Shown: one piece after another, positions 21,101 to 34,342 of the stretch | Layout: each line of letters opens with the position of its first letter | Position numbering within the stretch: position 1 is the stretch's first letter | Source of the DNA: Myxococcales bacterium | GTDB taxonomy: Bacteria > Myxococcota > UBA727 > GCA-2721815 | Direction: 5' to 3' | Length of the DNA stretch: 50,474 nt | NCBI GenBank assembly: GCA_002721815.1 | Contig: PBLQ01000013.1 | Span: 1 to 50,474, forward strand | Notes under the pieces: generated by a model | What the model saw: the letters and a program-made list of their open reading frames with translations, nothing else | What the model was told of the DNA's origin: nothing | Database searches by the model: none | Position numbers and translations under genes: made by a program

Positions 21101-21768
21101 CAAATCATGCAGGCGCCACCATTTACCACGTGGATGTGCATGGGGCCACCTATGATGCGGCGGATGATAATGCCTCTGTGTTCTATGCCCACGACCAAGC
21201 AACCTTGTTAAATGATTACGGCAATGATGTTCATGACTACTTGATTAAAACGGATGTGAGTTCAGATATGAGCGTGGTTTTACTCGCCACAGGTCGTCAG
21301 ACCTCTGATTTATTGGCCATGGAACTGTTCATTTGCTCTGAGAGCCCTGTTTACTGCACCCAAGGTGATTTTGGTGGTGCGCCGGGGAACAACGTCCTCG
21401 ATCATTGGGGGCGCGTGAAGCTTGGGGCACTGGACACCACAGGGTCGGTGGGTATGGATTTGAGAGTGACCGATGACGGGCAAATCTACGTGGGGTACAC
21501 GCACCGCAATCAAGTGAGAATGGCCCATTGTGCCGAAAATTGTACCGATATCGCCCAGTGGCGCGATGGCGTGTTACACATCGACCCGGTGGTCTCTCCA
21601 GCCATGTATAATAACGGCGTATTTTGGTTGACCGAAGAACCCAGTTTGAGTGAAGGCATACCTGCGAAAATCGGTTTTGTTTTGGGGAGATCTGCCGCGT
21701 TTGATGATGAAACCAGAAAGTTGAAAGCTTTCACGGGTGGTGAGTGGCTACCGCTCAAGGTTTACTGA
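9154..21768 (+). CDS. Giant (~4205 aa) cell-surface lipoprotein/adhesin: two CarbD-like domains, ~24 Ig-like LDTxxP repeats, Gly-rich linker, FN3, Cys/Trp-rich blade-repeat C-terminal region
   Basis: A single uninterrupted ORF. The start was chosen at ATG 9154 (MRSIWGALLGLFVFVGCQ, lipobox) with a GGGAGA RBS. The track ORF begins at 9013 but that part lacks a signal peptide. Domain content was read from the translation. Confidence 0.9.
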   Translation: MRSIWGALLGLFVFVGCQPTTQDTRADTRAAVSGRVVLADTPGVSDMSRVRVEIGKGEGGSTPEEDGMFQMTDLEPDVYEVRVLYIGGLTSDATESAYQEFTRRVLLQEGGNVDLGDIKLEVGLGVVTGGLVLTDESSTDGAIARLTNDTLVREAPVVDGVYTFADVPIGTYNLQVEKEGYTLAQEGSMSGSSVDDEEGGESNDAEGTEMGDLGCTQNTVVGFHSENVAAADFRFTPTNVSLLPGMGEIQTTRGSQWILSTETETLTANVVGGFITHARMWTENATPGAWEPFASGAGFEIAVSDLIEGNNAIYFQFAGCRYESPVTTLNVLLDKTAPSVESFEVRGRTPADDGGYWIATDAATLTVDFLADDAHSSIAGIAVVHTQDNEAPALADLVFDDVSAGDGLMMGSRQVGLTGGDGEKKIFLFLKDLAGNITESAYGDLSVHVDTEAPVPGSLLITGKDAAGEASTDVTATQEVTLTLSAEGASHYRVGYDETFGGQAWNDFDVSSRSWMLMPGDGTKTVYVQYKDAVGNVTLPISASIVLDTQPPSSTFISLNDGDDFTNSTAATATLSATDATHMRLSVDGLFDEEPWVAYDISHEVTLLSEEGEQRVDVMFRDAAGNVSMVKSDVIYLDMTPPELRSMDLLSIAAASDGTLWVTEENATLAVDIMADDGASGVSAVALVEGMTEPNANDVTFNAVFASPGLFLKTEYVTLNTAEGPTNVYLFLRDAAGNTSAMAGSFALQVDAQAPVFGDPAITVTNKSGTQIYADQAELQIQIADEEDPVMMRVGLQPLTSATQKIPYQSEVAVGLPSQTGLPVAFEVEVFDAAGNMTSATKSGFEVNRSGWLRGNISLEARQPAHVTMDTVLKLFDAGADLATTPRDIEYVTPSGEFEFAEVPEGAGMTLVVERMGYKTQTLAVPTIQSGLTSTLGDVEMEVARGYLSGRIMLEDLMDSEEEGHSGIRVMAQLVSSATSMTVMEAYTQNDGTFDFPYPGLPVNVEGESYTILAQLTGYFAESFEGQNVVEGDVTEMEPSRGELRPVSGDFDLCDPSTFGDGDCQPAAYTNLDAVGVRLRVREGVTQIRAMVGDTPFDPEAAEPAWEDYPTNAVPQVDIQSVAEGMIKVFVQVKDAAGNAGLVMNSQILVDRTAPQMRALTLNKSEDALRSDVTKEKAVNVTAEAELETADYAAPLARFEMAFSDESAPDDASPFDGSVRNCPINSACEVSLPRSIGDSVEEKRHVLNARVCDKAGNCSAEFETAAVLYDNTPPWIQSGTYVLNPEDAQMHDGVHYARTNLYSILLNTGTSINTAEAEMMDPAYESDDIDAVALADIYGWRLGFESNLIGEEWQTFDSTPQADYQVSVRGLGLPFGSTEEEVFMQFRDAAGNVTSVPSDYAFTVALDTEAPAASFVLNEGAKYIVQPPPNPLVSLIPITSVDLGFTTTSNDISEVQVSLTGLFDDTQTFPFSASGISVDLAHNVMVEDGEHHVYVRLEDWAGNITERSDSIILDRAPPDMGAVSVDDGSGYMLNYNAQVTVNCYDALANDGELLLDVSVDGEGGPAPEGTGYNGRYGNLIELSVGETQEVKTLNVTCTDPAGNNSEVVSIQATLDSEAPTFAAAPELHHGLNETNNPLVSVKVQVSDGVSGLDMLAFSEADSCDNVAFVEPPPVPSFCANDSSEECTSDSDCCTDDDGADCFCNVMDFRYLLSPNDGLKQVYVCARDMAGNVSTPRETNTVLLDTNPPTNPALSLTGGEWQTSSLTTANLSAVGASHMLIEGDVEEGPNTFDWIDYATSVPNLELSAGDGLKIVRAKFKDEAGNITDAVSAQTSVDETPPVVNSASCSSCQTVEGQLYAPERTIAFDVLGSDEGGSGVEWVKISLADGSAEATISYGNVLEYTLPNSGTSFDLVVWLVDYAGNTSDGSDDAYKQEFNIQLDDAPPVIHSFLVTSAASGYVTDPQLEIKLEVSDDTAFYRISNTGAFTGEPVVFVNENDTNGYPYVSLLHTVQAPTEDESKTVYVEVGDNAGNTAQQSVSVILDTTIPVGTIELAGGADYATVNRVDVVLTYPADATHYAVQNGLMDCTTQDLSSFNSVATSPQSLEDHHLGYGDGTKTVSVCYVDAAGNVAGASDNIILDTQGPTVSMVIENDAAYTQTRTVNLNLTKDEEIDKIVILNEGPGCDSLDFDNDGVGYEDTKGHTLSEGDGTKEVLVCFRDLSGQVTGATDTIELDSLDPNSTLTINDDVPYTNQRSVALTMGPNTPGAADFTDIVSMAVDAADCDTATYTPFVTSLTWLLGETEGDHTLEVCLKDASGRTAKTPAATVHLDTISPVPTVLIENDDAYTTFKKATVSFTFPDDATHYHAAGGAVNCENVSITDQVPADVSSVTLSNFDLPNAENEGEKMVTVCLKDNSGLIGSSFDTIYFDNNAPTVSVTINNGDTYSRSTSVDLTLSASENIAAIAIGDKMLDCNSESTDYSVYDYDVSIPNYDLGSAQGERQVKVCFRDDAGNLSSDVGLIIVDTLNPAATLKIGDDADYATQRQVSLSLLAVEGETNKFDDIKSMAVANAVSLDCDTAVYLPFTATQEHLLSDGDGEKQVVICLKDHAGNFASIGPAVIELDTQIPNGAIELAGGIEFLGHESSGAPRIEGTLTFPDDTLKYRVQNGYMDCTASTMVDLPDNHGGTYTVENHSLSSGEGEKLVTACFEDAAGLMASASAAIYVDQSPPNGTIVLNSGALVTDDANLSVTMSPPADVTHYAIGEGLDCDGNVSFIAYDGESMTDYLVDPAISGLYTIDVCFKDRAGLTAKTTASIILDVDAPVVNSVTITDADGNAIDYAKGVNVYVQVNITDLPDLTGDSGSDGDPGGGSGTGGGGGGSGGPDTETTLDVPNLEMMISEDAGFANAEWVTFKAFKPFTFSTANGPKNVYVKVRDGAEQESNVASDAEGVILDTESPTITSATFIESSPNALPGRVNPTDLAEDTEFCPGGNASTDPKKRFLSIELETNDNLAGSLTASVGLGSSCGDNYSPLSGNTVTVEVGCEDDGIHWVGICVKDAAGNRYTHPSIMLILDRQAPEQVSNVTAVGGSRQAMIDWQEAADLGDSGIQGYEIRYASFAELDGVGTVSVGDITSYSLTGLQDRATYYFQAAARDAAGNLGEFSAMKSFTTGFAQTVPRSDVTDAIIADPDRRFAQATVFEAMGQLYVFSYPTYEANPILKVKTCAYRTDNCRDPQQWTEFDLILGDIDRETTCVADDECGGGRCHEGFCYQNVWSFGAENVRALATSYRIYIAAMTNKGPALFTCDRGCTAAATQSADGLGFSLTYLERNNEDGCRIDQGGASWRSIDIAETTAGIHVAYNATEGDICVASCGKAYEAVPNTGMDVGPGCQLNQNWFHVNVSDVDSKPAFDLADRGPLDLEAWDDRIVLAYESENEGIEVISCYTGSGCINSGNSTGWDRFDANATSMTFAPLNPAGIEYNSPRIILTQDYIYTLWRKIGSYSTTKINRCARDAWIADNDACYPADNEDGTQGSFTQLWGQIEGGEMLSLFKGAGALHQVWWNKSQSRVKYAVCENPNATDCSDGDNWDRVVLANEVPSRTIPHVVQYGQNVLASWIDANAHVHLALPMVPAPDGFVVWPSAQSLRASWNPVSYVDGYDLWYQNARAYGASLDTNLWEQRIPLNDAFVNEVSMSLDTGASDELMTYNTCIRAYGNSGEESSDGDMYQVTAFVEETLSSDIPGNFSSRTCAADNTCSNYGADGWGSNVGYAYTINNDGVYVALQGRPEVRLALPNDATAGILDVLLTPQSSTRLGDYDNGYFFVVTGINHRNAIPETIVMNVCQFNLGQGRDCSFSDAWHSYEVVDNDTSNLGNANDGKTTAQLVHDGADRVFLAYRMSDRDQATANKVAFVSCFLTTYANGETTGCTEESQWLDYTFGGPHWKGMKTIPGRFSIAAGQTQITNQSGAVEDKGVVFLSYHRQDTNHAGATIYHVDVHGATYDAADDNASVFYAHDQATLLNDYGNDVHDYLIKTDVSSDMSVVLLATGRQTSDLLAMELFICSESPVYCTQGDFGGAPGNNVLDHWGRVKLGALDTTGSVGMDLRVTDDGQIYVGYTHRNQVRMAHCAENCTDIAQWRDGVLHIDPVVSPAMYNNGVFWLTEEPSLSEGIPAKIGFVLGRSAAFDDETRKLKAFTGGEWLPLKVY
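10141..17650 (+). repeat. Array of ~24 tandem ~95-105-aa Ig-like domains, each ending in an [IV]xLD[TR]xxP boundary motif and carrying a DAAGN/DxAGN strand
   Basis: Recurring boundaries include VLLDKTAPS, VHVDTEAPV, IVLDTQPPS, IYLDMTPPE, ILDTQGPTVS, IELDTQIPNG and ILDVDAPVVN. Copies are divergent (protein-level only), so this is not an assembly artefact. Confidence 0.7.
17752..17806 (+). repeat. Gly-rich low-complexity linker (GDPGGGSGTGGGGGGSGGPD) encoded by a GGC/GGT-rich simple repeat
   Basis: ggtggcgggagcggtactggtggcggcggcggcggctcgggagga read directly from the sequence. Confidence 0.6.
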
Positions 21769-21872: not shown

Positions 21873-24800
21873 ATGCGTCATCTTATCCTTCTTATTTTTT
21901 GTATTTCTGGGGTTTTAGGCGGTTGCCAACCCGTCACCAACGACACCCGCGCCGATGTGCGCGCTGCCATTTCTGGGCGTGTCGTCTTGGTGGACGAAAA
22001 CGGCTTAAACGATGTCAGTCGCGTCCGGGTTGAGCTGGGCAAAGGAGAGGGGGGGACCACCCCTGAAGAAGACGGCAGTTTTCAACTCTCGGACTTAGAA
22101 CCCGATGTCTATGAATTACGTGTCATCTATTCTGGCGGCTTAACGCCTGACGCCTCGGAGAGTGCGTACCAACAATTCAGTCGCCGTTTGCTGCTCCAAG
22201 AGGGGGGCAACCTGGATTTGGGTGATGTGGAGCTCCAGTTGGGTGTGGGGTCGGTGTCTGGTCAGCTGAGCGTCGAAGAAGGCCTCGATATCTCTTCTGC
22301 AACCGTGAACCTGTCGCGCATCACCTCATCGGACAAATCGCTGCGCCGCGTGGGCGACACCACCTACAGCCAAGCCCTCGAAGAAGATGGCAGCTTCACC
22401 TTAGAAAACGTTGCAGTGGGCTCTTATTATATGGTGGTTGAAGGCGATGGCATCTCTGCCACTTCAGGCTCTGCTTGCTTAGAGGTGGTGAGCGTTGACG
22501 AAGATTTACAAGTTAAAGAGGCCCCTTCTTTTTCATTGGCTTCCACCGCAGTGCGTTTTTCTGCCGGTACCGACCAAGTGATTGGCTTAGACACCTCAAG
22601 CCGTTGGTTGCTTTCGGGCGAGGGTGTCACCGTGCACATTCAAGCTTCTTTTGCCTTTGCCCAAAAAGTGTGGACGCAAGGCGAAGAGATGCCGGCTGAA
22701 TTTACAGATATTGACGAGGCAGACCGAGCAGACATCGTTCATATTTTTGAAAATATCGAAGAAGGTGAAAACGAAGTCTACTTTCAATTCGCAGACCCCT
22801 GTGGCTTTGAAAGCGAGGTGCTCACGCTGACTTTGGTGCGCGATATCTCACCTCCAGAGATTTTAAGTGCGCATTTGAACAACGAAGTGGCTTACAGCAC
22901 TGCAAGTACGGTGGCGCTCACGGTGGATGCCGTGGACGTGTTGTCAGACACCTTAGAAATGCAATGGGGCGTGTGTTTGTCGGGCGAGAGTGATTGTACG
23001 CCTTTAGACAGCGATGCCTCCAGCTGGACGCCTTATGTGCCTTATGTGAGCGTGCCTTTGGCCGAGGGCGATGGCACCTATCGGCTCGGTCTTCAACTCC
23101 GTGATGCATCACAGAACGCAACGGCCGTGGTGGAACGCAGCGTGACGTTGGATACGGTGGCGCCCACAGACTTAAGTTTGACCATCGGGGATGGGTCGGC
23201 CTTCATCACCGAGGCGAGTCAAATCTTGCGTCTGACGGGTGAGGGCATTTTTGAAATGCAGATCGGGACAGACTTGGCCGACGCCCCTTGGCAACCCTAT
23301 CAAGAGTACAGCAGCTACACCTTTTTGCCCTCTAGCGTCCCCGTGACATTGTATGCCAAAGCCCGTGATGAAGCGGGCAATATGACCGAATCCGTGGAAG
23401 CCAGCGTGACCTTAGATGCCACGGGGCCACAGGCACCCAGTGTGGTGCTCAACAATGGTGAACTGTTCTCCAATGGCCTAGCCGCTTTGGCTGATACAGA
23501 TGCTTCAGTACAAGGCGTCCGCATTGCCTTGAGCGTTGCCGGGGGCGAAGCCGGTGGGCAGGTCTTGATTGCAGGTGATGTTGAGGAAGCGGGCGCTTAC
23601 CCGTGGCCTGATCACCCCACTGAAGTGACTTTTGAGCGTGAAGAAGGAGAAAAAGAAATCAAAGTCGTACTGAGCGATGCGGCGGGCAACCACTCTGCCG
23701 TCACCAAGAGCACCGTCATGTTTGACTTTACCCGTCCAGTTTTAAACAATCTTCGTTTAAATGGTGATCGTGGTTACGCTCAAAGCGGCAATGTGAGTCT
23801 TGGATTGAACGCCACAGAGTTACATTTGAATCATCTCCAAATGAAGGTGGCCTTGTGTGTCTTGTCTGAAAACCCCCAAGACCACCTCAATCCCGCCGAG
23901 GAAATGACGTGCACGCCCTCACTTGAAGAACTGGAATGGGCTTCTTTTGCCGCTTTCCAAAATTTGAGCTTCCCTGAGGGAGACGGGGCGAAAGGCGTGC
24001 AAGTACGTTTGCGCGATGGTGCGGGCAATGAGAGTGAGGCCACGCTCATGAGGGCCTTTGTGCTGGACAGCACGCCACCCCAAAACGTGAGTCTGACCAT
24101 TGGTGATGGGTCGGCTTTTATCACCCAATTAACGCAAACAATCACATTGACTGGCGAAGGGATTGCAGAAATGAAGGTGGGCACTGACTCAGCCGGCGTC
24201 ACTTGGCAGCCTTACCAAGAAAATTTCATGTATACGTTTTCGCCTTCTGACGTGCCCGTGACGCTTTATGCCAGAGCCCATGATGAAGCGGGCAATACCA
24301 CAGATTTCGTGGAGGCCATGGTCACCTTTGATGCCACAGCTCCCCAAAACGCACAGGTGACGCTGAACGATGGCAGTCTTTTTTCAAACAATGATGCCTA
24401 CCAGGCGAATCTCAGCATTCTCGGCGGCGAAGAAGGCGGCCAGGTCATTCTGTCCGGTGACCTTGTTGAGGCGGGTGCCTACGATTGGCCCAATTACCCA
24501 TCCGAAGTGACCTTTGTGGCGGGCGAGGGCGACAGAGAAGTTCAAGTGGCCTTAAGCGACAGCGCTGCGAACTTTTCAGACTTTGTTTCGGCCATTGTCA
24601 TTTTTGACCTTACTGCGCCGGTGAACAATGTGGCATCTTTAAACCAAGACGATTTGTATTCTCAATCCGAGGTGGTCTCTTTGGTGCTGAATGTGACCGA
24701 GGCCCATGAAGATGGCTTACAAATGCGTGTGGCACAGTGCAGTCTTCCCAGTATGCCGCGAGACCACTTGAATCCTGCTGATCCAATGACCTGCGACCCT

Positions 24801-27800
24801 GTTTTAGAGGACATCCCGTGGGCACCTTACGCATCTTATCAAAATCTTATTTTTAATGAAGATGGGGCTAAGGGGGTACAAGTGCAAGTGCAGGACGGAG
24901 CGGGCAACCTTAGTGGTGCTGTGCAAAGGGCCTTTGTTCTCGATCGTCTGGCACCCCGCAGCATCAGTATCGCCATTGGTGATGGGAGCGCTTACGTGAC
25001 ACAACGGACGCAGGTGGTGTCCATTCAAGATGACAGACGTGAAGCCACGCACATGAAGATTGGCTTGGTGGAGGGGCTGCCTGGGGTGCCATGGCAAGCT
25101 TTTCAAGATCAAATTGAAGTCACATTTTCAGAAGAAGAAGGCGAGAAAACCGTCTACGCGCAGTTCCGCGATGCAGCAGGTAACGAGACACCTTCAACCA
25201 GTGCGTCCGTCACGTACACCACTTTGGGCACCATCACCGGCAAAGTGGTGGCAGAAGATTTACAAGATTTGAGTTTGGTGGAAGTGAGTGTGTTGGGCGG
25301 GAGTGGTTCGGTTTACCCTGAAGCCAACGGTACTTTTACCATCAGTGACATTCCTGAAGGCGTTTACACCGTCCAAGCCCAAGTCACGGGGCCCTGGGCC
25401 AGCAAATACAATGTGGCGCAATATGGCGTGGCGGTGGAGGCGTTACAGACCACCAGCATGCCAGACATGGTTTTAAACCTGGCGCGTGGCAACGTGAGTG
25501 GAGCCATTGATTTAGAAGCGCAAAACCACAATGGAGGCGTGGTGGTGCAACTCTTGCCGCTGTCAGTTGCTGACCAAGGCATGGCAGATGGTGGCGTCGC
25601 CAATGAAACTTGGGACGGTGGTGAGGCCGAAGACGATGGCTTCATTTATACCACCATCACCACCGATGAGGGTGCATTTGCCATCAACGGGGTCGTTGTG
25701 GGCCAATACCAGCTGAAGGCTTCAAAACCGAATTACGTGAGTCAAACCTTTGCGCCAATAGGGGTTTTGGCGAACGAAATGGCAGAAATCCCAACAATTT
25801 ATTTAGAAGTACAAAAAGGAGATGTCAGCGGTGTTGTTCAGGTAGAGGCCTTTGTCGGCAGCATGGACGATGGGAACGATTCAGACGGTGGCACCAACGA
25901 TTTGCGCACGAGGGTTTCTTTCTTGAATCTCAATTCACAGTTGACAGTTTCGCCCGGAGAAGCATTTACGTTTGACGGGGTGGCTTTGGGCCCCCAGACC
26001 ATGCGTTTTGAAGTGTTGCCCCCGTATGACGACTTGTATGCCCCAGTGGAGAAAGCTGTTGAAGTCACCGCAGGCCTCTCTTCGGTACCACAGGTTTATA
26101 TGCCTTTGTTGCGGGGAAGTCTCTCCGGCAGCGTTGCCAATGAAAACACCCTGCCAGTGATAGGGGCGTTGGTGTCGATTCAAGAGCTGGATCTCGTGAT
26201 GGTGTCGAATACCAACGGTGAGTTTGAGTTTCTGTCGGTTCCAGTGGGAGTTTACACCCTGAAAATCAACAGTGCGGGATATGGGGAAGAGACGCTGACG
26301 GCCCAAGTGCAGGCAAACACCAACACCGATCTCGGGCTGCAGACACTCGTTCGGGAGAAGGGGAATGTGCAGGGTTTGGTTAACATCGAAGGCGGTTTAT
26401 CTCCCAATAACGTTGCGGTATCTGTCGTCGGTGGCAGTCAAAGTGCGCAAGCGTCAGAGACAGAACCAAACAGCACCAACGGCAGTTTTCTTTTAGAAGG
26501 GGTCGACCCGGGACTGCAAACATTGCGTTTCGAGGTCACGGGTGGCGATGCCGTCAACTATTTGGCAAAAGAGCTCGATGTTGTGGTGCAGGCGGCTCAG
26601 ACCATAGAAGTCAATGGTGGTCAGCCTTTGACCGTTCTAAAGGCAAGAGGTTCTATTTCAGGGACCGTCCTGCTCGACAATCACAATGGTGATGTTGATG
26701 TCTTGGTGCAAATACCCTCTGAGTCGGAAGCCGTGTTGACCAATGCGGATGGTTCATTTGTTTTTTCTGATGTGCCGGTTGGGCAATACAATCTTACGTT
26801 TCAACGATCCGGTTACCAGGCAGCCACTGCGAACAACCAATTGGTGACCAACGGCGGCATCACCATTGTAGACACCCTCACTTTGCCAGAGTTGCTGGGC
26901 AGTATTTCGGGGCAGGTGGTCCTCGAGGAGGGTTCCGATTTTTCGGGCATTGAAGTCAGTTTGACGGGGACCAACCATTCTGTCACCACAGACATCGATG
27001 GCAACTTTAACTTGCCTGATATACGTCCTGGATTTTACAACGTGCTCATGCGCAATGACGGCTTTCAGGATTTACGTGAAAATGGTGTTTATGTTCAGGC
27101 GCTCGTTGATAACGATTTGGGCGGTTTTGTGCTCACGCGTGCGCGCGGCCTTCTTGAAGGCGTGGTTCGTTTGGAGGGGCTGGAAAACCATTTGGGCATC
27201 AAGGTCGAATTCCCAAATACGGGCTACACCACCTATTCTGCTGTGGACGGCAGCTTTGACCTTAATGTGCCGGTGGGCAACTATCCTGACTTAACCTTCT
27301 CGAAGACCCATTACGGTACGGTGGTTTTGGCGGATACCATTACGGTGACCGAGTACGGCACCTACGCGGTGGAGCCCGTTGATTTGGTGCAGGTGAGTAA
27401 ATCGGTCACAGGCTCGGCATTTTATCAGGGCATGGATGACCACCAAGGCATTTTGGTCCAAGCCTATGGCCTAAACGCGGGGGGGACTGAAACGTTGGTT
27501 GACGAAACCACCACCTCAACTGCAGGGACCTACGGTTTTGAATCTTTACCGCTTGGCCAATACCGTTTCCGATTCTCAAACCCGTTGGCCAATACCAGTT
27601 GGTCAAGGCCTTTCTTTCAGGTTGCCCTAGAGGTGGGTGCTGCCGAAGAAATGCCATCTGTTTTTCTGCAGAATATGTTTGTCTTCATTAACGATGATGA
27701 TTTGGCCACGAATAATCCAGTGGTGACATTAAATGTGGGGGCCATGGGTTGTGATACCATGCGTGTGGCGAATGAAGGCGATGACCTCAGCGCTGCGCCA

Positions 27801-30800
27801 TTGGTGACTTGTCCGCAAAGCCAACAACTTTCAGACTGGTCTTTGAACGACGTGAACCAAGGCGAAGAAGAAGAGCGTAAAGTCTTCGCGCAATTTTACG
27901 ATGCACAGGGGAATGAGCTGGGCCCTCCCGTTTTTGATTCGATTTTACTCGATAAGAAACTTGAAATCGATACCGATTTTGAATGGGGTGGGAGTTCTTG
28001 GCTACCAAACGAAACCGGGTATTTTACCATGATCGATTTTGCCGTTGGGGTGCCCATCGGGGAGACGGTGGATAAAGTTTGGGTGGATATGGGCGCATAT
28101 CAGCCGGAACTGCTGCTTTTGTATGACGGCGAAGCGCGTTTGAACCCTGCGAATGAAGCAGAGCCTGTTCTGCAAGTGTACCGACGAAGTTTTACAGTGT
28201 TGGACCGTACCGATGCCCATAATGTGGAGGTTCAATTTAAGGTACAAGATGCTGCTGGTAATATCGCCACCTCGGTGTTGGGGACCACCAGTTTTGTCTT
28301 CCCTCCCGAAATTTTACAGCAAACCATTGTGGCAGATACGGCTGCAGGAACGGCAACCTTGTTTTTGCAAACCGACGAGATCAGCTCGGGAACCGTCGCC
28401 TGGGGCAATACGCTGGATTACAATGAACCGTTGATTTCCCTTTCAGCAGATACGCAGCACGAAACGATTTTTACAGGGCTGGTACCTGGCGAGCCCTATT
28501 ACGTTAAAATCGATATTGAGGATTTATCGGGTAACGCCCTTGATTCCATTTACAAAATATTCTTTTTAAGGCCCGCTGCGCCCGTAAGGGTGGTGGCCAT
28601 GGCTGGGGATGGCCGTGTGGACGTGCGGTGGGAGATGCCGGGTCGTTATGTTGGCAATGGGTACGAACAGAATCGTGACCAGTTTGACGTGCCGGTGCAG
28701 TGGAACATCCGCGGGTATGAAATATATAAGGCCACAGATAACGGTGATAATGTTTGCGACGAAACGGATACATTTACTCCTGTCAGTCCGGCAGGGGGTT
28801 ACGACCATCCAACCTTGTTGTACCACGACCAAGATGAAAATGGTGTCCATCAAGTGAGCAACGGCATTTTGTACTGTTATCGGGTTGCTGCTTTAGATGA
28901 GAATGGCATCGAAGGTGATTTGAGTGACATTGTTGAGGCCCGGCCAACTCTTAACAACGGCGGCACATACGTGGGCTGCGATACTTACGTTGATGAGACT
29001 GGGGCGACGCAGAACTGTGATATTACATCGGGCGCTTTTTTGACAAATACCGTTTGGACTTCAGCAGGAAGCCCTTACCACGTCAAAGCATCCTTGGCCT
29101 TTCTTGAGAATGTGGCTTGGTTCGTCGGTCCAGGAACCGAAATTATTCTGAGTCCGGGCGTCGAATTGGATATCTATCATCAGTTTGGTTTTTATGGACA
29201 AACGTCTGATGTGTTGTTCGAGCTGGATGATGACGGCCACGCCCAGGTAGATCCGGAGGGAATGGTGCATTTGCACGGGGTCGAGGGTGAGGCCGATTGG
29301 AAATGGCTGAAGTTGCATGGTGGTGCACCGCTCGGTCGGGTCAATATCGGGGCGAACCCGCGTTTCTTTGCGGGCAACATGATCTTTAGGACTCGAGTTT
29401 CCAATGCAGATCGCGCCCTCTACCTCAACGGTGGCGATTTGGTTATGTTAAACAGTTGGTATCACGACAACAAAGCGTTCGATCCTGTCACTGGAAGTGC
29501 CTTGAAATGGGGGCAAGGCAACTTGATTGAAGACAGTGGCTTCGGCACTTATGAGTACGATTTGAATCGTTTTGAAAATCAAGTCCACCGTAACAGTGAG
29601 TTTTCCGCCGAACATGGTTTCACCCAAAACATGGTGATAATGTGCGACAGTTACTGCTCGCATCAAACTTTCATTGATGTTGCATCCATATACGATTCGC
29701 AGAGCGAGAGCGTGGTTCATTATGGTGGTGAAATCTATTTCTCCGTTTTGTCAGATATCACCCTTGGTACTTATGCGCATTGGCATAACAGCCACGGCTA
29801 CGGAAATAAATTTTCGAACCATGGTACTGTATACCATTCGCTCATGGATGGGGTGGTCTTTACCGGTACCCAATTTCATCCTGGATTGACGAACAGTTGG
29901 TTTGTTGAGCCGCCAACAGCATGGTCCATCTATCGGGGCATCAACAACAATAAATATGCCGCTTTTCATCACAACAGTTTTTTTGATAGCGGTATTGCGT
30001 CTTCCATTGATTCCATAACGGCTTACGGTTGGTACTCAAATACGCCCACCACCCATCTGGACGCTAATTTCTACGGGGCAACTCATACCCTAGAGTTGGA
30101 CGCTGCCGACGCTTCCACGGATGTGTCTTTTCTGAACGACGTCTTCGATGATGCCGAAAAACCGCGTTTCGTTTGGGATGATTATCTCAGCGAGCCGACA
30201 CCCGTGATCCAAATCCAGGGCCCGCTCATGCTGGCAGAGTTACAAACGCAAAAACCTTATGACCTCACGGCACGTGTGGCTCATGGGGCTGAATATATCG
30301 CAGAGGACGCCGTGTTTGAATGGGTTTGGGAGGCAAGTGATGATAGCGAAACGGTTTCAGTTGGGTCGGTATTCACGGTGACGCCTCCTTCGAGGTTTAT
30401 CAACACATGGGAGCATGTGATTTTGGAGGCGCATGTGCGTATCATGACCACTGGCGGGTTTTATGTTTACGCCAGCCACACCATCAAAGCGCTCGAGAAC
30501 AACCAGTATCACAGTGGTTATCAAGTGATTCCTGAAGGGATTGTATGGCCGGTAACGCAAGATTACACCTTTCCTCAAGGCGCCCATTGGTTGCACGGGC
30601 CATCGTTGGTATCGCCCCCGGACAAGCCTGCCATCGCAAAGATGGTGTGTGGTTACGCGGACTGCGTGATGACTTGCTTCTTAAATGAGGAACCGCAAAT
30701 TTGCGATCACGGTGTCTGGCACGCGCGTTTGGATGAGGGTGCGTATACTTTACGGGTGGAGGTTCATGACAGTGAGGGCCTTGAATTGCAGACGCCGTTG

Positions 30801-31241
30801 ACGCGCGCTTTTACCGTAACATCAAATTTAGCAGAAACCGCGACGGCAGATGCAAATCACAGTTGGGCCACTGCCTACGGACCTTCACGTGTGCTGGATG
30901 GAGATACAGATACGTTTTGGTGGTCGGATGATATGGCAGCGAGCAATGTCCCCTCGGCTCAATTGACGGTTACGCTTGCGGAGGAGCGCTCCATTAATCG
31001 GATAAGAATTGTGACGGGTGAAAGGTTTTTGCAATCGTTTGATCTGGAAGTTTCTACTGATAACCAGAATTATGAAATACTTGGCAGTTATTCTACGGAT
31101 GCTTATGGTGTCAAGATGATAGAATTTGAGCCGACCGATGCAAAGTATGTTCGTTTGAATCAAATTACGGCCCAACCCAATGAGTACAATCGGGAAATAT
31201 GTGGCATCTTAGAATTGGGTGTCTACGAAAACCAAGAGTGA
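21873..31241 (+). CDS. Giant (~3123 aa) cell-surface lipoprotein/adhesin, paralogous at its N-terminus to the upstream giant; Ig-like domains, tandem 303-aa units, ~9 CarbD-like domains, FN3, His-rich beta-helix-like region, C-terminal discoidin (F5/8 type C) domain
   Basis: Start ATG 21873 (MRHLILLIFCISGVLGGCQP, lipobox). Residues ~30-170 align with giant 1. Giant 2 reads RADVRAAISGRVVLVDENGLNDVSRVRVELGKGEGGTTPEEDGSFQLSDLEPDVYELRV. Giant 1 reads RADTRAAVSGRVVLADTPGVSDMSRVRVEIGKGEGGSTPEEDGMFQMTDLEPDVYEVRV. C-terminal ...FWWSDD...RIRIV...YVRLNQI... is discoidin-like. Confidence 0.9.
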   Translation: MRHLILLIFCISGVLGGCQPVTNDTRADVRAAISGRVVLVDENGLNDVSRVRVELGKGEGGTTPEEDGSFQLSDLEPDVYELRVIYSGGLTPDASESAYQQFSRRLLLQEGGNLDLGDVELQLGVGSVSGQLSVEEGLDISSATVNLSRITSSDKSLRRVGDTTYSQALEEDGSFTLENVAVGSYYMVVEGDGISATSGSACLEVVSVDEDLQVKEAPSFSLASTAVRFSAGTDQVIGLDTSSRWLLSGEGVTVHIQASFAFAQKVWTQGEEMPAEFTDIDEADRADIVHIFENIEEGENEVYFQFADPCGFESEVLTLTLVRDISPPEILSAHLNNEVAYSTASTVALTVDAVDVLSDTLEMQWGVCLSGESDCTPLDSDASSWTPYVPYVSVPLAEGDGTYRLGLQLRDASQNATAVVERSVTLDTVAPTDLSLTIGDGSAFITEASQILRLTGEGIFEMQIGTDLADAPWQPYQEYSSYTFLPSSVPVTLYAKARDEAGNMTESVEASVTLDATGPQAPSVVLNNGELFSNGLAALADTDASVQGVRIALSVAGGEAGGQVLIAGDVEEAGAYPWPDHPTEVTFEREEGEKEIKVVLSDAAGNHSAVTKSTVMFDFTRPVLNNLRLNGDRGYAQSGNVSLGLNATELHLNHLQMKVALCVLSENPQDHLNPAEEMTCTPSLEELEWASFAAFQNLSFPEGDGAKGVQVRLRDGAGNESEATLMRAFVLDSTPPQNVSLTIGDGSAFITQLTQTITLTGEGIAEMKVGTDSAGVTWQPYQENFMYTFSPSDVPVTLYARAHDEAGNTTDFVEAMVTFDATAPQNAQVTLNDGSLFSNNDAYQANLSILGGEEGGQVILSGDLVEAGAYDWPNYPSEVTFVAGEGDREVQVALSDSAANFSDFVSAIVIFDLTAPVNNVASLNQDDLYSQSEVVSLVLNVTEAHEDGLQMRVAQCSLPSMPRDHLNPADPMTCDPVLEDIPWAPYASYQNLIFNEDGAKGVQVQVQDGAGNLSGAVQRAFVLDRLAPRSISIAIGDGSAYVTQRTQVVSIQDDRREATHMKIGLVEGLPGVPWQAFQDQIEVTFSEEEGEKTVYAQFRDAAGNETPSTSASVTYTTLGTITGKVVAEDLQDLSLVEVSVLGGSGSVYPEANGTFTISDIPEGVYTVQAQVTGPWASKYNVAQYGVAVEALQTTSMPDMVLNLARGNVSGAIDLEAQNHNGGVVVQLLPLSVADQGMADGGVANETWDGGEAEDDGFIYTTITTDEGAFAINGVVVGQYQLKASKPNYVSQTFAPIGVLANEMAEIPTIYLEVQKGDVSGVVQVEAFVGSMDDGNDSDGGTNDLRTRVSFLNLNSQLTVSPGEAFTFDGVALGPQTMRFEVLPPYDDLYAPVEKAVEVTAGLSSVPQVYMPLLRGSLSGSVANENTLPVIGALVSIQELDLVMVSNTNGEFEFLSVPVGVYTLKINSAGYGEETLTAQVQANTNTDLGLQTLVREKGNVQGLVNIEGGLSPNNVAVSVVGGSQSAQASETEPNSTNGSFLLEGVDPGLQTLRFEVTGGDAVNYLAKELDVVVQAAQTIEVNGGQPLTVLKARGSISGTVLLDNHNGDVDVLVQIPSESEAVLTNADGSFVFSDVPVGQYNLTFQRSGYQAATANNQLVTNGGITIVDTLTLPELLGSISGQVVLEEGSDFSGIEVSLTGTNHSVTTDIDGNFNLPDIRPGFYNVLMRNDGFQDLRENGVYVQALVDNDLGGFVLTRARGLLEGVVRLEGLENHLGIKVEFPNTGYTTYSAVDGSFDLNVPVGNYPDLTFSKTHYGTVVLADTITVTEYGTYAVEPVDLVQVSKSVTGSAFYQGMDDHQGILVQAYGLNAGGTETLVDETTTSTAGTYGFESLPLGQYRFRFSNPLANTSWSRPFFQVALEVGAAEEMPSVFLQNMFVFINDDDLATNNPVVTLNVGAMGCDTMRVANEGDDLSAAPLVTCPQSQQLSDWSLNDVNQGEEEERKVFAQFYDAQGNELGPPVFDSILLDKKLEIDTDFEWGGSSWLPNETGYFTMIDFAVGVPIGETVDKVWVDMGAYQPELLLLYDGEARLNPANEAEPVLQVYRRSFTVLDRTDAHNVEVQFKVQDAAGNIATSVLGTTSFVFPPEILQQTIVADTAAGTATLFLQTDEISSGTVAWGNTLDYNEPLISLSADTQHETIFTGLVPGEPYYVKIDIEDLSGNALDSIYKIFFLRPAAPVRVVAMAGDGRVDVRWEMPGRYVGNGYEQNRDQFDVPVQWNIRGYEIYKATDNGDNVCDETDTFTPVSPAGGYDHPTLLYHDQDENGVHQVSNGILYCYRVAALDENGIEGDLSDIVEARPTLNNGGTYVGCDTYVDETGATQNCDITSGAFLTNTVWTSAGSPYHVKASLAFLENVAWFVGPGTEIILSPGVELDIYHQFGFYGQTSDVLFELDDDGHAQVDPEGMVHLHGVEGEADWKWLKLHGGAPLGRVNIGANPRFFAGNMIFRTRVSNADRALYLNGGDLVMLNSWYHDNKAFDPVTGSALKWGQGNLIEDSGFGTYEYDLNRFENQVHRNSEFSAEHGFTQNMVIMCDSYCSHQTFIDVASIYDSQSESVVHYGGEIYFSVLSDITLGTYAHWHNSHGYGNKFSNHGTVYHSLMDGVVFTGTQFHPGLTNSWFVEPPTAWSIYRGINNNKYAAFHHNSFFDSGIASSIDSITAYGWYSNTPTTHLDANFYGATHTLELDAADASTDVSFLNDVFDDAEKPRFVWDDYLSEPTPVIQIQGPLMLAELQTQKPYDLTARVAHGAEYIAEDAVFEWVWEASDDSETVSVGSVFTVTPPSRFINTWEHVILEAHVRIMTTGGFYVYASHTIKALENNQYHSGYQVIPEGIVWPVTQDYTFPQGAHWLHGPSLVSPPDKPAIAKMVCGYADCVMTCFLNEEPQICDHGVWHARLDEGAYTLRVEVHDSEGLELQTPLTRAFTVTSNLAETATADANHSWATAYGPSRVLDGDTDTFWWSDDMAASNVPSAQLTVTLAEERSINRIRIVTGERFLQSFDLEVSTDNQNYEILGSYSTDAYGVKMIEFEPTDAKYVRLNQITAQPNEYNREICGILELGVYENQE
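23152..25215 (+). repeat. Internal tandem repeat of a ~303-aa (~909-nt) two-domain unit, ~2.3 copies (units begin ~23152, ~24061, ~24936)
   Basis: Unit A reads VTLDTVAPTDLSLTIGDGSAFITEASQILRLTGEGIFEMQIGTDLADAPWQPYQE...VTLYAKARDEAGNMTESVEASVTLDATGPQAP. Unit B reads FVLDSTPPQNVSLTIGDGSAFITQLTQTITLTGEGIAEMKVGTDSAGVTWQPYQE...VTLYARAHDEAGNTTDFVEAMVTFDATAPQNA. A partial unit C reads FVLDRLAPRSISIAIGDGSAYVTQRTQ... Copies are diverged, roughly 55% aa identity. Confidence 0.75.
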
Positions 31242-31253
31242 TTGCGGGGCGAC

Positions 31254-32546
31254 TTAGAGGCAATTTTGAATGATAACCCCGTCCGTGTTGGTCGTGCATG
31301 TGCAGCTGGGATCTTCGTTGTTAAATACGCCAGTGCTGAAAGAGCAGATATCGCCTCGTGACTTGACCTGGTCACGCAACTGGCTGAACATGCATTGGGC
31401 TAAGGCGTAGTTTTCAAAAATCGCAAAGGCAGTATGAGAGTCGGCATCTACCCGCGACAGATTTCTTAAATCGTATCCCGTGAGTAAAGGGCAGCTGTTG
31501 ATGAGGAGGCTGTTGACTTGTTCGAGGACCGGGGCCGAAAAAGAGGTGATCACATCGCTGCGGTAGACAAAGAAAGCGCCGCCGACTTCACGAAGTTTGG
31601 GCACGGAAAAGGATGTGAGAATATCTGCATCTTCAATGCGAAAGGTGCCGTCCACTTTTTCAAGGTTCGGTAATTCGAAGTAGTCTAAACTGTTGTTGAA
31701 CATGAGGTATAAGTCGCCGGTGATGGCGGTGCAGTGCTGGATGTCTTCGATGCGAACATTGCGGGTGACAGGCATGCCGCCATCGTTAGACGTGAGACTC
31801 ATGCCCGCATCGGTCACGCCAAAAGCAGAGGTGGTGGGGCCGCTATCGGTGATGACAGGTGGTGTTGCTGCGCCCGCGTCGGTCACCGCTGGCGGGGGCT
31901 GGTGGCCCGCATCATTGGCCATGGCTGAGGATTGCCCGCCATCCACAGCCATGTGGTTGCTGCCCCCATCACGGTTGAGCGCTGCAGGTGTGCCGCTGTC
32001 GGGCATGTCTGGGCTCTCGATGTAATAGGTGCCCTCACAGATGACATCATCCACTGTTTCGGTGTGTTCGACCACATATTCCGTGTCGCAGGGCTCCTCA
32101 CTGGGATTTGAAGGGCCCGCGTCGGTTTCGTCGCCGGGTTCTGCCTCAAAAGTATCAGCGCGGTCATCGTATTTACAGGGCGGGACACCATCGTCCTCCA
32201 TGGGGGCGTCAGGGCCGATGGTGAGGCTGCACTGGGCCGTGAGCGTGCGGGAGGTATTCAGGACGTAAGGGCTCGCGTAGGTGGCCGTGAGAATGACCCG
32301 ACCGTTTTGATGGGCAGTGACCAAGCCTGCTCTGAGAAGCGTGTCGGGTGGCAGAACAGTGGTGTCTTGGTTGATGGAAGCGATGGCTGCATCCGAGCTG
32401 CTCCATGTGATGACTTCGGGTTTGACCAACCGTCCATTTTCGTAATGTCGAAAATAAAAGTCGGGGACCAATTGTCGGGTTTCACCCACGGCCATGTTGC
32501 CAGTGGTGTTCTCCATGGCCACCAGCTGAAGGTCGTATAAACCCAC
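31254..32546 (-). CDS. BIG2 (bacterial Ig-like group 2) domain + Asp/Thr/Gly-rich linker + receptor-L-domain/LRR-like C-terminal domain protein; probably the body of a frameshifted lipoprotein gene
   Basis: BIG2 signature VGETRQLVPDF...ITWSSSDAAIASIN. The C-terminus has L-domain-like repeats (CTAITGDLYLMFNNSLDYFELPNLEKVDGTFRIED...LREVGGAFFVYRSDVITSFSAPVLEQV). The ORF starts at GTG 32546 with no signal peptide. A lipoprotein signal lies immediately upstream in another frame. Confidence 0.7.
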   Translation of the reverse strand: MGLYDLQLVAMENTTGNMAVGETRQLVPDFYFRHYENGRLVKPEVITWSSSDAAIASINQDTTVLPPDTLLRAGLVTAHQNGRVILTATYASPYVLNTSRTLTAQCSLTIGPDAPMEDDGVPPCKYDDRADTFEAEPGDETDAGPSNPSEEPCDTEYVVEHTETVDDVICEGTYYIESPDMPDSGTPAALNRDGGSNHMAVDGGQSSAMANDAGHQPPPAVTDAGAATPPVITDSGPTTSAFGVTDAGMSLTSNDGGMPVTRNVRIEDIQHCTAITGDLYLMFNNSLDYFELPNLEKVDGTFRIEDADILTSFSVPKLREVGGAFFVYRSDVITSFSAPVLEQVNSLLINSCPLLTGYDLRNLSRVDADSHTAFAIFENYALAQCMFSQLRDQVKSRGDICSFSTGVFNNEDPSCTCTTNTDGVIIQNCL

Positions 32547-32905
32547 GTGGAATCGAGGGTGTCATCTAAAGTGCCAGCGTCGGTCGTCTGGTTGTCGTCG
32601 GTTGGGTTCGCTTGGCCGCCGTCTTCATGGATGGGAGGCGGTGTGGTCGTGATTGCACCTGCATCAAGGGTCGTGTCATTGTTGGGTGGGGGCTGAAAAA
32701 TGGTTTTATTTTTTGTGGTGCCGTCTGTTGGTGCATTGTTGTCTTCTGGACATCCAATGACCAGTGCTGAAATGCTGGTCGCAATGATGATTTTAAAAAT
32801 AAGGTGCTTGGTTGATTTCAATGGTTTTGCTTTCTTTTGGGGTTGTGCAGGTGCCTGTTGAACCAGCGAATGTGGCGTGAAAAATTGGCGATTAAAGGTC
32901 GTCAT
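32547..32905 (-). other. Out-of-frame N-terminal segment (lipoprotein signal LIFKIIIATSISALVIGC + T/P/D-rich linker with TDAG repeats) probably belonging to the BIG2 gene downstream; apparent frameshift near 32546-32565
   Basis: ORF 32258..32905 has ATG 32905 and an alternative TTG at 32821 (MKSTKHLIFKIII...IGC). Its linker TLDAGAITTTPPP...TDAGTLDDTLDS matches TDAG-type linker repeats inside the 430-aa ORF. The meaningful sequence ends where the BIG2 ORF begins. Confidence 0.35.
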
Positions 32906-33386
32906 CGCAATCGTTCGTGTTCTGTGGCCCTAAATCGACCGCGGCGCAGGTTGGGTAGGGTGGACAAAATTCGTTGGCACCAAAAATGAGGGCGGAAATG
33001 TCTTCGAGGTCACATAAGCCATTGGGAATGACACCCGACAGTTCGTTGCCGTGCACCCACAGGTACCGTAAGTTGCTGAGTTCGACATAGCTCTCAGGGA
33101 TGGGACCGGTAAAACCGTTTTGGTCAACTTTAAGCGTTTCGAGGTCGCTGAGGAGTGAGAGGTTGGCGGGGAGTTCACCGGAAAGATTGTTGTCGCTCAC
33201 CGAGAGCAAAGTGAGGTTGGAAAGTGCACTGAGTTCAGGGGGAAGCGCCCCCGATAAGGTATTGAAACCCAGTTGCAATTGGTTGAGTTGGGCCAGGGTG
33301 GCGATGCCCAAAGGGATTTCTCCCGCGAGACTGTTGTTTGACAAAACCAAATTAATGAGTTGGGTTGACCAGGCTGTCCGAACCAT
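32892..33386 (-). CDS. Plant-specific-type leucine-rich-repeat protein (LxxLxxLxLxxNxLSGxIP repeats) with a Cys-containing C-terminal cap; probably the body of a frameshifted lipoprotein gene
   Basis: Five 24-aa repeats, for example LINLVLSNNSLAGEIPLGIATLAQ, LNQLQLGFNTLSGALPPELSALSN, LTLLSVSDNNLSGELPANLSLLSD and LETLKVDQNGFTGPIPESYVELSN. The C-terminus is CPPYPTC...NDCDDDL. Confidence 0.7.
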   Translation of the reverse strand: MVRTAWSTQLINLVLSNNSLAGEIPLGIATLAQLNQLQLGFNTLSGALPPELSALSNLTLLSVSDNNLSGELPANLSLLSDLETLKVDQNGFTGPIPESYVELSNLRYLWVHGNELSGVIPNGLCDLEDISALIFGANEFCPPYPTCAAVDLGPQNTNDCDDDL

Positions 33387-33438
33387 CGCAGGCCATGAGC
33401 CCGGTGAATAAAAAGGGGATGAGCAACGTCTTTTTCAT
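33352..33438 (-). other. Out-of-frame lipoprotein signal peptide ORF (MKKTLLIPFLFTGLMAC|DGSDSLVNPTH*), probably the true N-terminus of the LRR protein, separated by a 1-nt frame difference
   Basis: ATG 33438 with an AAGGA-like RBS, followed by a classic lipobox LMAC. The ORF stops 34 nt inside the LRR ORF, whose first repeat (TQLINLVLSNN) begins exactly there. Confidence 0.35.
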
Positions 33439-33688
33439 GAGGGAGTCCTTTTTTTTGAGAGGTGATGATGGGCAGACACGCAGCTGTCCCGAAAGGTAAA
33501 CCGCCAAGCCAGGGTGTTTTGGGCCGACGGCTGCCATTTAGGAGACGAAGCCTGTTTAAGCCATTGAAAAGAATAGATTTCTGATTTAAGGGAACGAAGA
33601 CTTGGGGAATAAAAAAAATTGTTAAATCCACGCCACATGGGTGGGGTTCCCCATATATAAGGGTGTACAGCCAACGACGGGGCATAGA

Positions 33689-34342
33689 ATGCGAATGAAA
33701 CTAAAATTATTGATAATGGCTTTGACCGTGACCTTTTCTGCCGGCTTAATGGCAGCAGATGCCAACAAGCCTCACGAGCACCAAGGTTTGGTAAAGCCCA
33801 TTAAAGGCGCCCCGCCAGAACTCAAGCTGACCGCAGCCGATCAGGCCAAATTGGCCAAGGGGGAGCCGGTTCGTAAACGCATCACCATCGGTGACACCGG
33901 GGGGCGCGGTGTGGTTGTTCAAGACATCCAAGCCCCTAAAGATGTGGTGATGGGTCGTATTTTGGATTTCAACAATTATCCCAAAATGGTGGACAAGGTG
34001 AAACTCACCAAAAACTACGAGACCAAAGGCGGTCACGTGAAAACCCATTTCATCATCGGTAACTTTGCGTTTGAAATGGAATACTTCATTGACCACGTCG
34101 TCAAAAAAGATAAGGGCTACGTCACCTGGACACTGGATTACAGCCGCAACAGCGATTTGGTAGACTCGGTGGGTTTTTGGCACGCCAAAGTACATCCTAC
34201 AAAACCGGGCTGGACGCGCTTGGTGTACTCCGCAGAGATTCGACTTTCTTCTTGGGTGCCCGGTTTCGTAGAAAATTATTTTGCCGAAAAAGGCCTGGTG
34301 AACGCCACGGCTTGGGTGAAGAAAGAGTCGGAGAAACGCTGA
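33689..34342 (+). CDS. Secreted SRPBCC (START/Bet v1-like, polyketide-cyclase-like) family protein
   Basis: Signal peptide MRMKLKLLIMALTVTFSAGLMAA. The ~150-aa mature domain has an SRPBCC-like beta-grip pattern (VVVQDIQAPKDVVMGRILDFNNYPKMV...WTLDYSRNSDLVDSVGFWHAKVHP...). Start chosen at ATG 33689. Confidence 0.6.
   Translation: MRMKLKLLIMALTVTFSAGLMAADANKPHEHQGLVKPIKGAPPELKLTAADQAKLAKGEPVRKRITIGDTGGRGVVVQDIQAPKDVVMGRILDFNNYPKMVDKVKLTKNYETKGGHVKTHFIIGNFAFEMEYFIDHVVKKDKGYVTWTLDYSRNSDLVDSVGFWHAKVHPTKPGWTRLVYSAEIRLSSWVPGFVENYFAEKGLVNATAWVKKESEKR

Follow-up and report, generated by a model that had tools for sequence, protein, structure and literature searches.

Bacterial genes are known to turn into pseudogenes by internal deletion, and bacterial genomes show a deletional bias. 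As in other deletion pseudogenes, a frame-disrupting loss in comparison with intact orthologues, recognisable 5′ and 3′ remnants and a functionally linked neighbour that is also degraded are found at a locus of an uncultured Myxococcales bacterium. The locus lies on the minus strand of a 50,474-nt stretch of DNA, contig PBLQ01000013.1 of the assembly GCA_002721815.1, which is referred to here as the window. It comprises two adjacent genes for surface lipoproteins: gene 1, encoding a protein with Big_2-like and Recep_L-like domains, and gene 2, located upstream, encoding a leucine-rich repeat (LRR) protein. Both genes are probably recent pseudogenes, which arose by deletions just behind the signal peptide. 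The locus differs from other deletion pseudogenes in that its remnants show neither further decay nor acceleration, which would imply a very young event, and in that both scars are located directly behind the signal peptide.

The preliminary description of this DNA had reported a lipoprotein gene that is split between two frames at about position 32560. The lipobox signal, read from TTG 32821 or ATG 32905, and a T/P/D-rich linker with TDAG repeats were assigned to one frame and the domains to another. The three-frame translation of the minus strand, which is the basis for the description of the frames and junctions, agrees with this layout and places the end of the linker at about 32562. Gene 1 consists of the following parts:

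32562..32905, minus strand: frame A remnant with start, lipoprotein signal, lipobox VIGC and T/P/D linker with DAG motifs (from translation, lipobox rule and tblastn)
32258..32561, minus strand: frame A read-through tail, running out of frame over the Big_2-like coding region, W-rich and homologous to nothing (from translation)
32558..32564, minus strand: junction 1, the putative deletion scar, with the frame B TGA at 32564-32562 (from tblastn and translation)
31254..32558, minus strand: frame B body with HPRFHVGL, Big_2-like domain, Cys-containing middle, TDAG linker and Recep_L-like domain (from Pfam and tblastn)

Frame A can start at ATG 32905 or, alternatively, at TTG 32821. The former aligns with ATG 1938 of the orthologous gene on the contig L001, described below, and is the homologous start of the orthologue. 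The signal, encoded as KSTKHLIFKIIIATSISALVIGC, has a K/H-rich n-region, a hydrophobic core and the lipobox VIGC with the Cys codon at 32752-32750. Read from TTG 32821, it conforms to the lipobox rule (MKSTKHLIFKIIIATSISALVIGC). This rule is of the PROSITE PS51257 type and requires a positively charged n-region and a hydrophobic core, then a lipobox [LVI..][..][AGS]C whose Cys stands at residues 15-35. Since about nine chance matches per shuffled window are obtained over six frames, the rule is not decisive alone, and therefore position and orthology carry the weight. The linker behind the signal, PEDNNAPTDGTT...TLDAGAITTTPPP...NQTTDAGTLDD, is rich in T, P and D and contains two DAG motifs. 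Past its end, frame A encodes W-rich nonsense up to the stop at 32260-32258. The register of this tail is stop-poor over much of the first part of the open reading frame (ORF) in frame B, ORF B, so that its openness is uninformative.

Frame B lies at -1 relative to frame A. After the TGA it continues with HPRFHVGLYDLQLVAMENTTGNMAVGETRQL... and is open as far as the TAA at 31256-31254, with GTG 32546 and ATG 32516 as candidate starts. The first body codon homologous to the orthologue is CCT at 32558-32556, which encodes the P of the motif PRFHVGL. Within the body, this motif is followed by the Big_2-like domain at about 32489-32280, the Cys-containing middle, the TDAG linker at about 31964-31752 and the Recep_L-like C-terminal domain, whose Pfam match covers 31736-31554 and which itself runs on to the stop. 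The internal linker of the TDAG type, already recognised in the preliminary description, contains the five motifs ETDAGP, ANDAGH, VTDAGA, ITDSGP and VTDAGM. ORF B is 100% identical to the NCBI protein MBL91237.1 (P0001; CMH56_05410), a hypothetical protein of 430 amino acids (aa) annotated from GTG 32546. It was correctly noted earlier that this annotated body has no signal peptide. The mature domains, expected in frame behind the lipobox Cys of a lipoprotein, stand in the -1 frame in gene 1 and in the +1 frame in gene 2.

The conserved ATG 32905 is separated from the signal core by approximately 84 nt (32899-32822, minus strand), encoding TFNRQFFTPHSLVQQAPAQPQKKAKP, that have no counterpart in L001, where, unlike in the window, the signal peptide is located directly behind the ATG. 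Either the n-region is unusually long or the start has moved to TTG 32821.

The only close homologue of gene 1 outside the population of the window is P0002, a protein of 679 aa with 67% identity in the initial search. It is encoded on the contig CACNYZ010000052.1 (L001) of the assembly GCA_902624725.1. The gene order on L001 is that of the window: a 344-aa LRR lipoprotein, the 679-aa lipoprotein and, on the opposite strand, the C-terminus of a giant protein. The two gene pairs share order, orientation and the convergent giant neighbour, their identity is 72% for the LRR protein and 68% for the body of gene 1, and in both of them the start codon of gene 1 overlaps the end of the LRR gene by 14 nt. 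Unlike in the window, each L001 gene is encoded in one frame, and both aa 25-181 of the LRR protein and aa 91-263 of P0002, termed domain X, are present. P0002 is a single-frame lipoprotein composed of signal, DAG linker, domain X, Big_2-like domain, middle region, second DAG linker and Recep_L-like domain. Domain X comprises about 170-173 residues, is Cys-rich and predicted to be all-beta, and is located between the linker and the PRFHVGL motif. A tblastn search aligned aa 3-90 of P0002 with window positions 32821..32564 in frame A (33% identity, E 1e-4) and aa 264-679 with 32558..31257 in frame B (68% identity), while aa 91-263 gave no match anywhere in the 50-kb window. At the boundary the L001 sequence ...LPFKPRFHVGLNRL stands against TGA-HPRFHVGLYDL in the window, and the six PRFHVG codons differ at third positions only.

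Domain X followed by the Big_2-like domain in a single frame was also found in P0010 (643 aa, 40% identity) and P0089 (27%), and a third lineage, L012, with 84% identity to P0002, has domain X too. The boundary motif PF[KH]xRFH[VS]GL is conserved among the relatives with domain X. Because the outgroups P0010 and P0089 carry domain X, it is ancestral and the window lineage is the one that lost it. The neighbours of P0010 are not syntenic with the window, and this protein can be used only as an outgroup for the domain architecture. The flanks of the missing segment are 526 nt apart in L001 coordinates, which equals 3x175+1. The lost length is 3n+1 nt, since the remaining flanks stand in different frames, corresponding to a -1 shift. 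Judging from this comparison, the break in gene 1 appears to be an out-of-frame deletion that removed domain X and not a 1-nt slip. According to the preliminary description, the break would have to be sought elsewhere if an intact homologous single gene were known. Such a gene does exist, but the break stays at the predicted place.

It is also conceivable that the short form without domain X is older in this lineage, or that the deletion was originally in frame, and that a separate 1-nt indel occurred later at the junction. Gene 1 would still be a pseudogene in this case. The boundary between linker and domain is a natural site of domain gain and loss, and only a handful of relatives are known. 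However, the indel would have to hit 5 nt, from TGA 32562 to codon 32558, out of about 1.6 kb, the presence of domain X in both outgroups speaks against an older short form, and the same coincidence would be needed again in the LRR gene. We regard this course of events as quite unlikely.

An imperfect 12-nt direct repeat is present in L001 at 2199-2210 (ACCACCGATATC) and 2725-2736 (AACCCCGGTTTC). Its copies match at 8 of 12 positions and are 526 nt apart, and the window junction at 32560-32549 resembles each of them at 8 of 12 positions. About 0.4% of the 12-mer pairs at 526-nt spacing match as well as this pair, which was chosen after the fact. The repeat is a possible trace of a microhomology-mediated deletion, statistically weak and no more than a hint.

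Two other sequences are related to P0002. The L012 sequence, a contig of JGI 3300060270, is 84% identical to P0002 at the aa level in the body and has an upstream neighbour that is not an LRR gene. It contains a 1-nt break within domain X at 1376-1394, where HLPPNCPV* in one frame stands against LPSVEVQTF in the next. As only a single contig shows it, the break may stem from a read error or reflect a second, independent inactivation. L013 (1-1350; ENA BPAM22-1 scaffold_52074) encodes only the Recep_L-like C-terminal module of about 150 aa, with 81% identity to P0002. It has no homology upstream of nt 659, its C-terminal end is altered, and an mraZ-like ORF adjoins. Either L013 is a further truncated copy, or the contig is chimeric.

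The window belongs to a marine population of an uncultured bacterium that has been sampled widely and is nearly clonal. Eight independent assemblies (Tara MEGAHIT, Tara scaffolds from two samples, SPAdes NODE_328, JGI 3300020430, the metagenome-assembled genome (MAG) GCA_002298025.1, Logan SRR5324508 and CEUV01) match the window region 33600..31254 with 99.91-99.96% identity, 1-2 mismatches and zero gaps. Since all of them are gap-free over both junctions, the frame breaks are not an error. The 90% cluster of ORF B contains versions from Tara, JGI, ENA, Logan and another NCBI MAG, and no intact allele was seen among the 90% clusters. The population shows 2 differences in 9.2 kb. The single-nucleotide polymorphisms (SNPs) inside the two genes, at 32252 (S/A) and 33092 (S/R), are both non-synonymous. 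At position 32252 the minus strand of the window MAG reads T, which gives Ser99 of ORF B, and all eight other assemblies have G (Ala); this variant is either specific to the MAG or a consensus error.

The preliminary description had considered a sequencing or assembly indel as a cause of the break and had pointed to the ttt and ccc runs near the junction. More generally, the true genome could be intact, with the segments skipped or collapsed in the assembly, as the window comes from a MAG and the linkers contain recurring motifs. This possibility is very unlikely, since the eight contigs, which come from different samples, assemblers and projects, are identical over both junctions, and the ttt and ccc runs are not the cause. 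Neither junction is flanked by a long repeat that could collapse about 500 nt, and about 22 kb of neighbouring giant ORFs, with 4251 and 3133 codons, are uninterrupted. The other overlapping ORF pairs in the window, checked for splits, look like ordinary genes with over-extended ORFs.

The same assemblies bear on phase variation, by which slipped-strand mispairing would switch the genes on and off reversibly. As in phase-variable surface lipoproteins, both genes would be off because of a frame change shortly behind the signal peptide, where repeat tracts are typically found. Unlike in such systems, neither junction contains a homopolymer or a short tandem repeat, no length variation was detected among the eight assemblies, and the more than 150 codons missing are beyond repair by slippage, so that the change is irreversible. 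With neither a tract nor variation, phase variation is for practical purposes refuted; it is the least probable of the explanations considered here, and its chance is minimal.

The LRR gene upstream of gene 1 is broken in the same way as gene 1: signal and body are in different frames and a segment is missing. Two parts can be recognised:

33352..33438, minus strand: gene 2 signal-peptide remnant, MKKTLLIPFLFTGLMAC-DGSDSLVNPTH*, with the Cys codon at 33390-33388 and the TAA at 33354-33352 (from translation and lipobox rule)
32892..33392, minus strand: LRR body of gene 2, shifted to +1 against the frame of its signal (from Pfam and tblastn)

The signal read from ATG 33438 conforms to the lipobox rule, and an AAGGA motif similar to a Shine-Dalgarno (SD) sequence is located 8 nt upstream of this ATG. 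The body contains six or more plant-type LRRs of 24 residues and a Cys-containing C-cap, and it passes the Pfam cut-offs for LRR_1 (48.9 bits, cut-off 20.6) and LRR_8 (36.9 bits, cut-off 27). In the tblastn search, aa 182-342 of the L001 LRR protein aligned with window positions 33392..32901 at 72% identity; nothing in the window corresponds to aa 25-181, the approximately 157 residues that make up the linker, the N-cap and the first repeat. The junction is located somewhere within 33392-33356. The long form is confirmed for the L001 lineage by P0159, a protein of 344 aa with 92% identity to the L001 LRR protein. Gene callers in all assemblies have annotated only the 164-aa body, from ATG 33386, and the 420- or 430-aa body of gene 1, and the signal remnants have been left as intergenic.

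The full-length product of either gene would now need two frames, as in the programmed frameshifting of the dnaX type (-1) or the prfB type (+1), which the preliminary description had offered as a further cause. To restore the full-length lipoproteins, ribosomes would have to shift by -1 near 32560 and by +1 near 33360-33390. Signal and body are contiguous, frame A is open past the junction, and the signal remnants are intact and lipobox-compliant, all of which would suit recoding. Unlike in the known systems, however, the window has no slippery sequence, stimulatory structure or conserved two-frame layout, and the junction lacks sequence. Frame A (GAC ACC CTC GAT TCC ACG TGG GTT TAT) contains no heptamer of the form X XXY YYZ, the GGGTTTA being in the frame B register. 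The downstream 106 nt fold no better than shuffled sequences (z = 0.07), and Rfam finds nothing in 30800-34000. The two genes would also require shifts in opposite directions. Because the orthologues (in gene 1, those of L001 and P0010) are single-frame and carry the 157-173 extra residues exactly at the breaks, the two-frame layout is a deletion scar and not a conserved recoding site. Programmed recoding is thus highly improbable.

We propose that each of the two neighbouring surface-lipoprotein genes, which point in the same direction, has undergone an internal deletion of a length not divisible by three. About 173 codons, encoding domain X, would have been removed from gene 1, so that the body now follows the signal and linker in the -1 frame. 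The deletion in gene 2 would have comprised about 157 codons for the linker, the LRR N-cap and the first repeat, with the body left in the +1 frame behind the signal. Ribosomes beginning at the original starts would then make a signal peptide followed by nonsense. The bodies, which are Cys-rich and of the extracytoplasmic type, should not reach their compartment without a signal peptide. Inactivation of one member of the pair may have been followed by the loss of the other. The inactivation would be very recent, with the population spreading clonally afterwards. The presence of an intact orthologue and the reality of the disruption in eight assemblies support a pseudogene, the remaining cause named in the preliminary description. 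Relaxed selection or further decay of the remnants was not observed, which is compatible only with a recent event. Scans of genome contigs with P0002 and the alignment A1 gave no closer relative for dating the deletions, scans of metagenome contigs with the alignments A1 and A3 gave nothing, and the literature search gave nothing relevant.

Several observations weigh against the pseudogene explanation. The ratio of non-synonymous to synonymous substitution rates (dN/dS) between the window and L001 is low, with 0.09 for ORF B, 0.05 for the Recep_L-like domain and 0.05 for the LRR body. The bodies (1290 and 495 nt) contain no extra stops or frameshifts. No acceleration was found in the window lineage: the unique changes in the window and in L001 number 6:6 with P0011 as outgroup and 15:21 with P0010 (p = 0.4). 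This absence of decay fits a very recent loss and a continued function of the truncated ORFs equally well. Furthermore, the two genes are 73-75% identical at the aa level between the lineages, in comparison with 37% for the C-terminus of the adjacent giant protein. Because both are far better conserved than this C-terminus, their inactivation in a successful population is somewhat unexpected. Finally, the long form of the LRR gene is documented in one other lineage only, that of L001 and P0159, and no independent outgroup of this gene was found. The direction of change in gene 2 is suggested by the frame break and by analogy with gene 1.

The truncated ORFs could therefore still be functional, with ATG 33386 as the start of the LRR body and GTG 32546 or ATG 32516 as that of the Big_2/Recep_L body, yielding signal-less proteins that are cytoplasmic or exported in another way. 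The intact bodies, the low dN/dS values, the lack of lineage-specific acceleration and the fixation of the arrangement across many samples are in favour of this possibility. However, dS between the window and L001 is saturated, and for this reason the low dN/dS mostly reflects the history before the deletions. Neither body has an N-terminal hydrophobic segment, both consist of Cys-rich modules of the extracellular type, and the LRR body lacks its N-cap. The candidate starts are not preceded by a well-spaced SD-like motif, which is present at several clear genes here. Fixation in such a near-clonal population needs no selection for the truncated form, and the non-synonymous nature of both SNPs within the genes also speaks against function. 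We consider functional truncated ORFs unlikely, although they are the strongest alternative to recent pseudogenes. Still somewhat more doubtful is the idea that the scars are adaptive. The signal-less proteins would then be made and under selection, or rescued by recoding, and both genes would have been changed in a shared step, for instance the shedding of exposed domains targeted by phages or grazers, and not by two accidents.

The domains named in the preliminary description do start in a different frame right at the end of the linker. Their Pfam scores in the window are below the thresholds. Big_2 (PF02368) matched ORF B with E 0.033 and 14.6 bits, under the gathering threshold of 22.8, and the relatives score 12.2-16.8 bits against the same threshold. 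Recep_L_domain (PF01030) matched with E 8e-4 and 19.9 bits against a threshold of 21.8, which the orthologue P0002 passes with 28.0 bits. More than 1300 proteins match the Recep_L-like C-terminal module. The names of the window domains are thus only weakly backed by Pfam, and Big_2-like is the best label for the first of them. Domain X gave no match in Pfam, NCBIfam or PDB sequence searches. Structure prediction of the whole P0002 was of low confidence (mean predicted local distance difference test score (pLDDT) 43.5), as was the model of domain X with the Big_2-like segment of the orthologue (pLDDT 55). Searched with Foldseek, this model gave only weak matches, which are taken as hints because of its low confidence: domain X matched CUB/C-CPE-like jelly rolls, which are beta-sandwiches, and the Big_2-like segment, which aligns with that of the window itself, matched LigA and Big_2 structures.

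Although this kind of event is well known, the new case is of some value for annotation. CMH56_05410 (430 aa) and the 164-aa LRR ORF, deposited as ordinary hypothetical proteins, are the 3′ remnants of broken lipoprotein genes, and the 375-nt intergenic gap between the two ORFs is the remnant of the signal and linker of gene 1. The locus also illustrates that a frame break at a linker-domain boundary can conceal the loss of a whole domain, which only the comparison with orthologues reveals. The deletion of about 173 codons and the equivalent scar in the adjacent LRR gene had been missed in the preliminary description. The loss of a conserved pair of surface proteins in an abundant uncultured marine lineage would be recent, and it would be a matter of ordinary genome dynamics unless the truncated ORFs are expressed.

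The C-terminal module of gene 1 recurs up to 14 times in giant proteins. Two giant ORFs are located on the plus strand of the window at 9154-21768 and 21873-31241, with 4251 and 3133 codons, respectively, and lipobox signals ending in ...FVFVGC and ...GVLGGC. The product of the second, whose C-terminus is the one with 37% identity to its L001 orthologue, contains CarboxypepD_reg repeats and an F5/8-type-C domain. The intact gene pair and the giants look like equipment for binding or adhesion at the cell surface. Further lipobox-compliant ORF starts are present in the window at 1598, 36819, 39868 and 46644, and this part of the genome seems to be very rich in lipoproteins.

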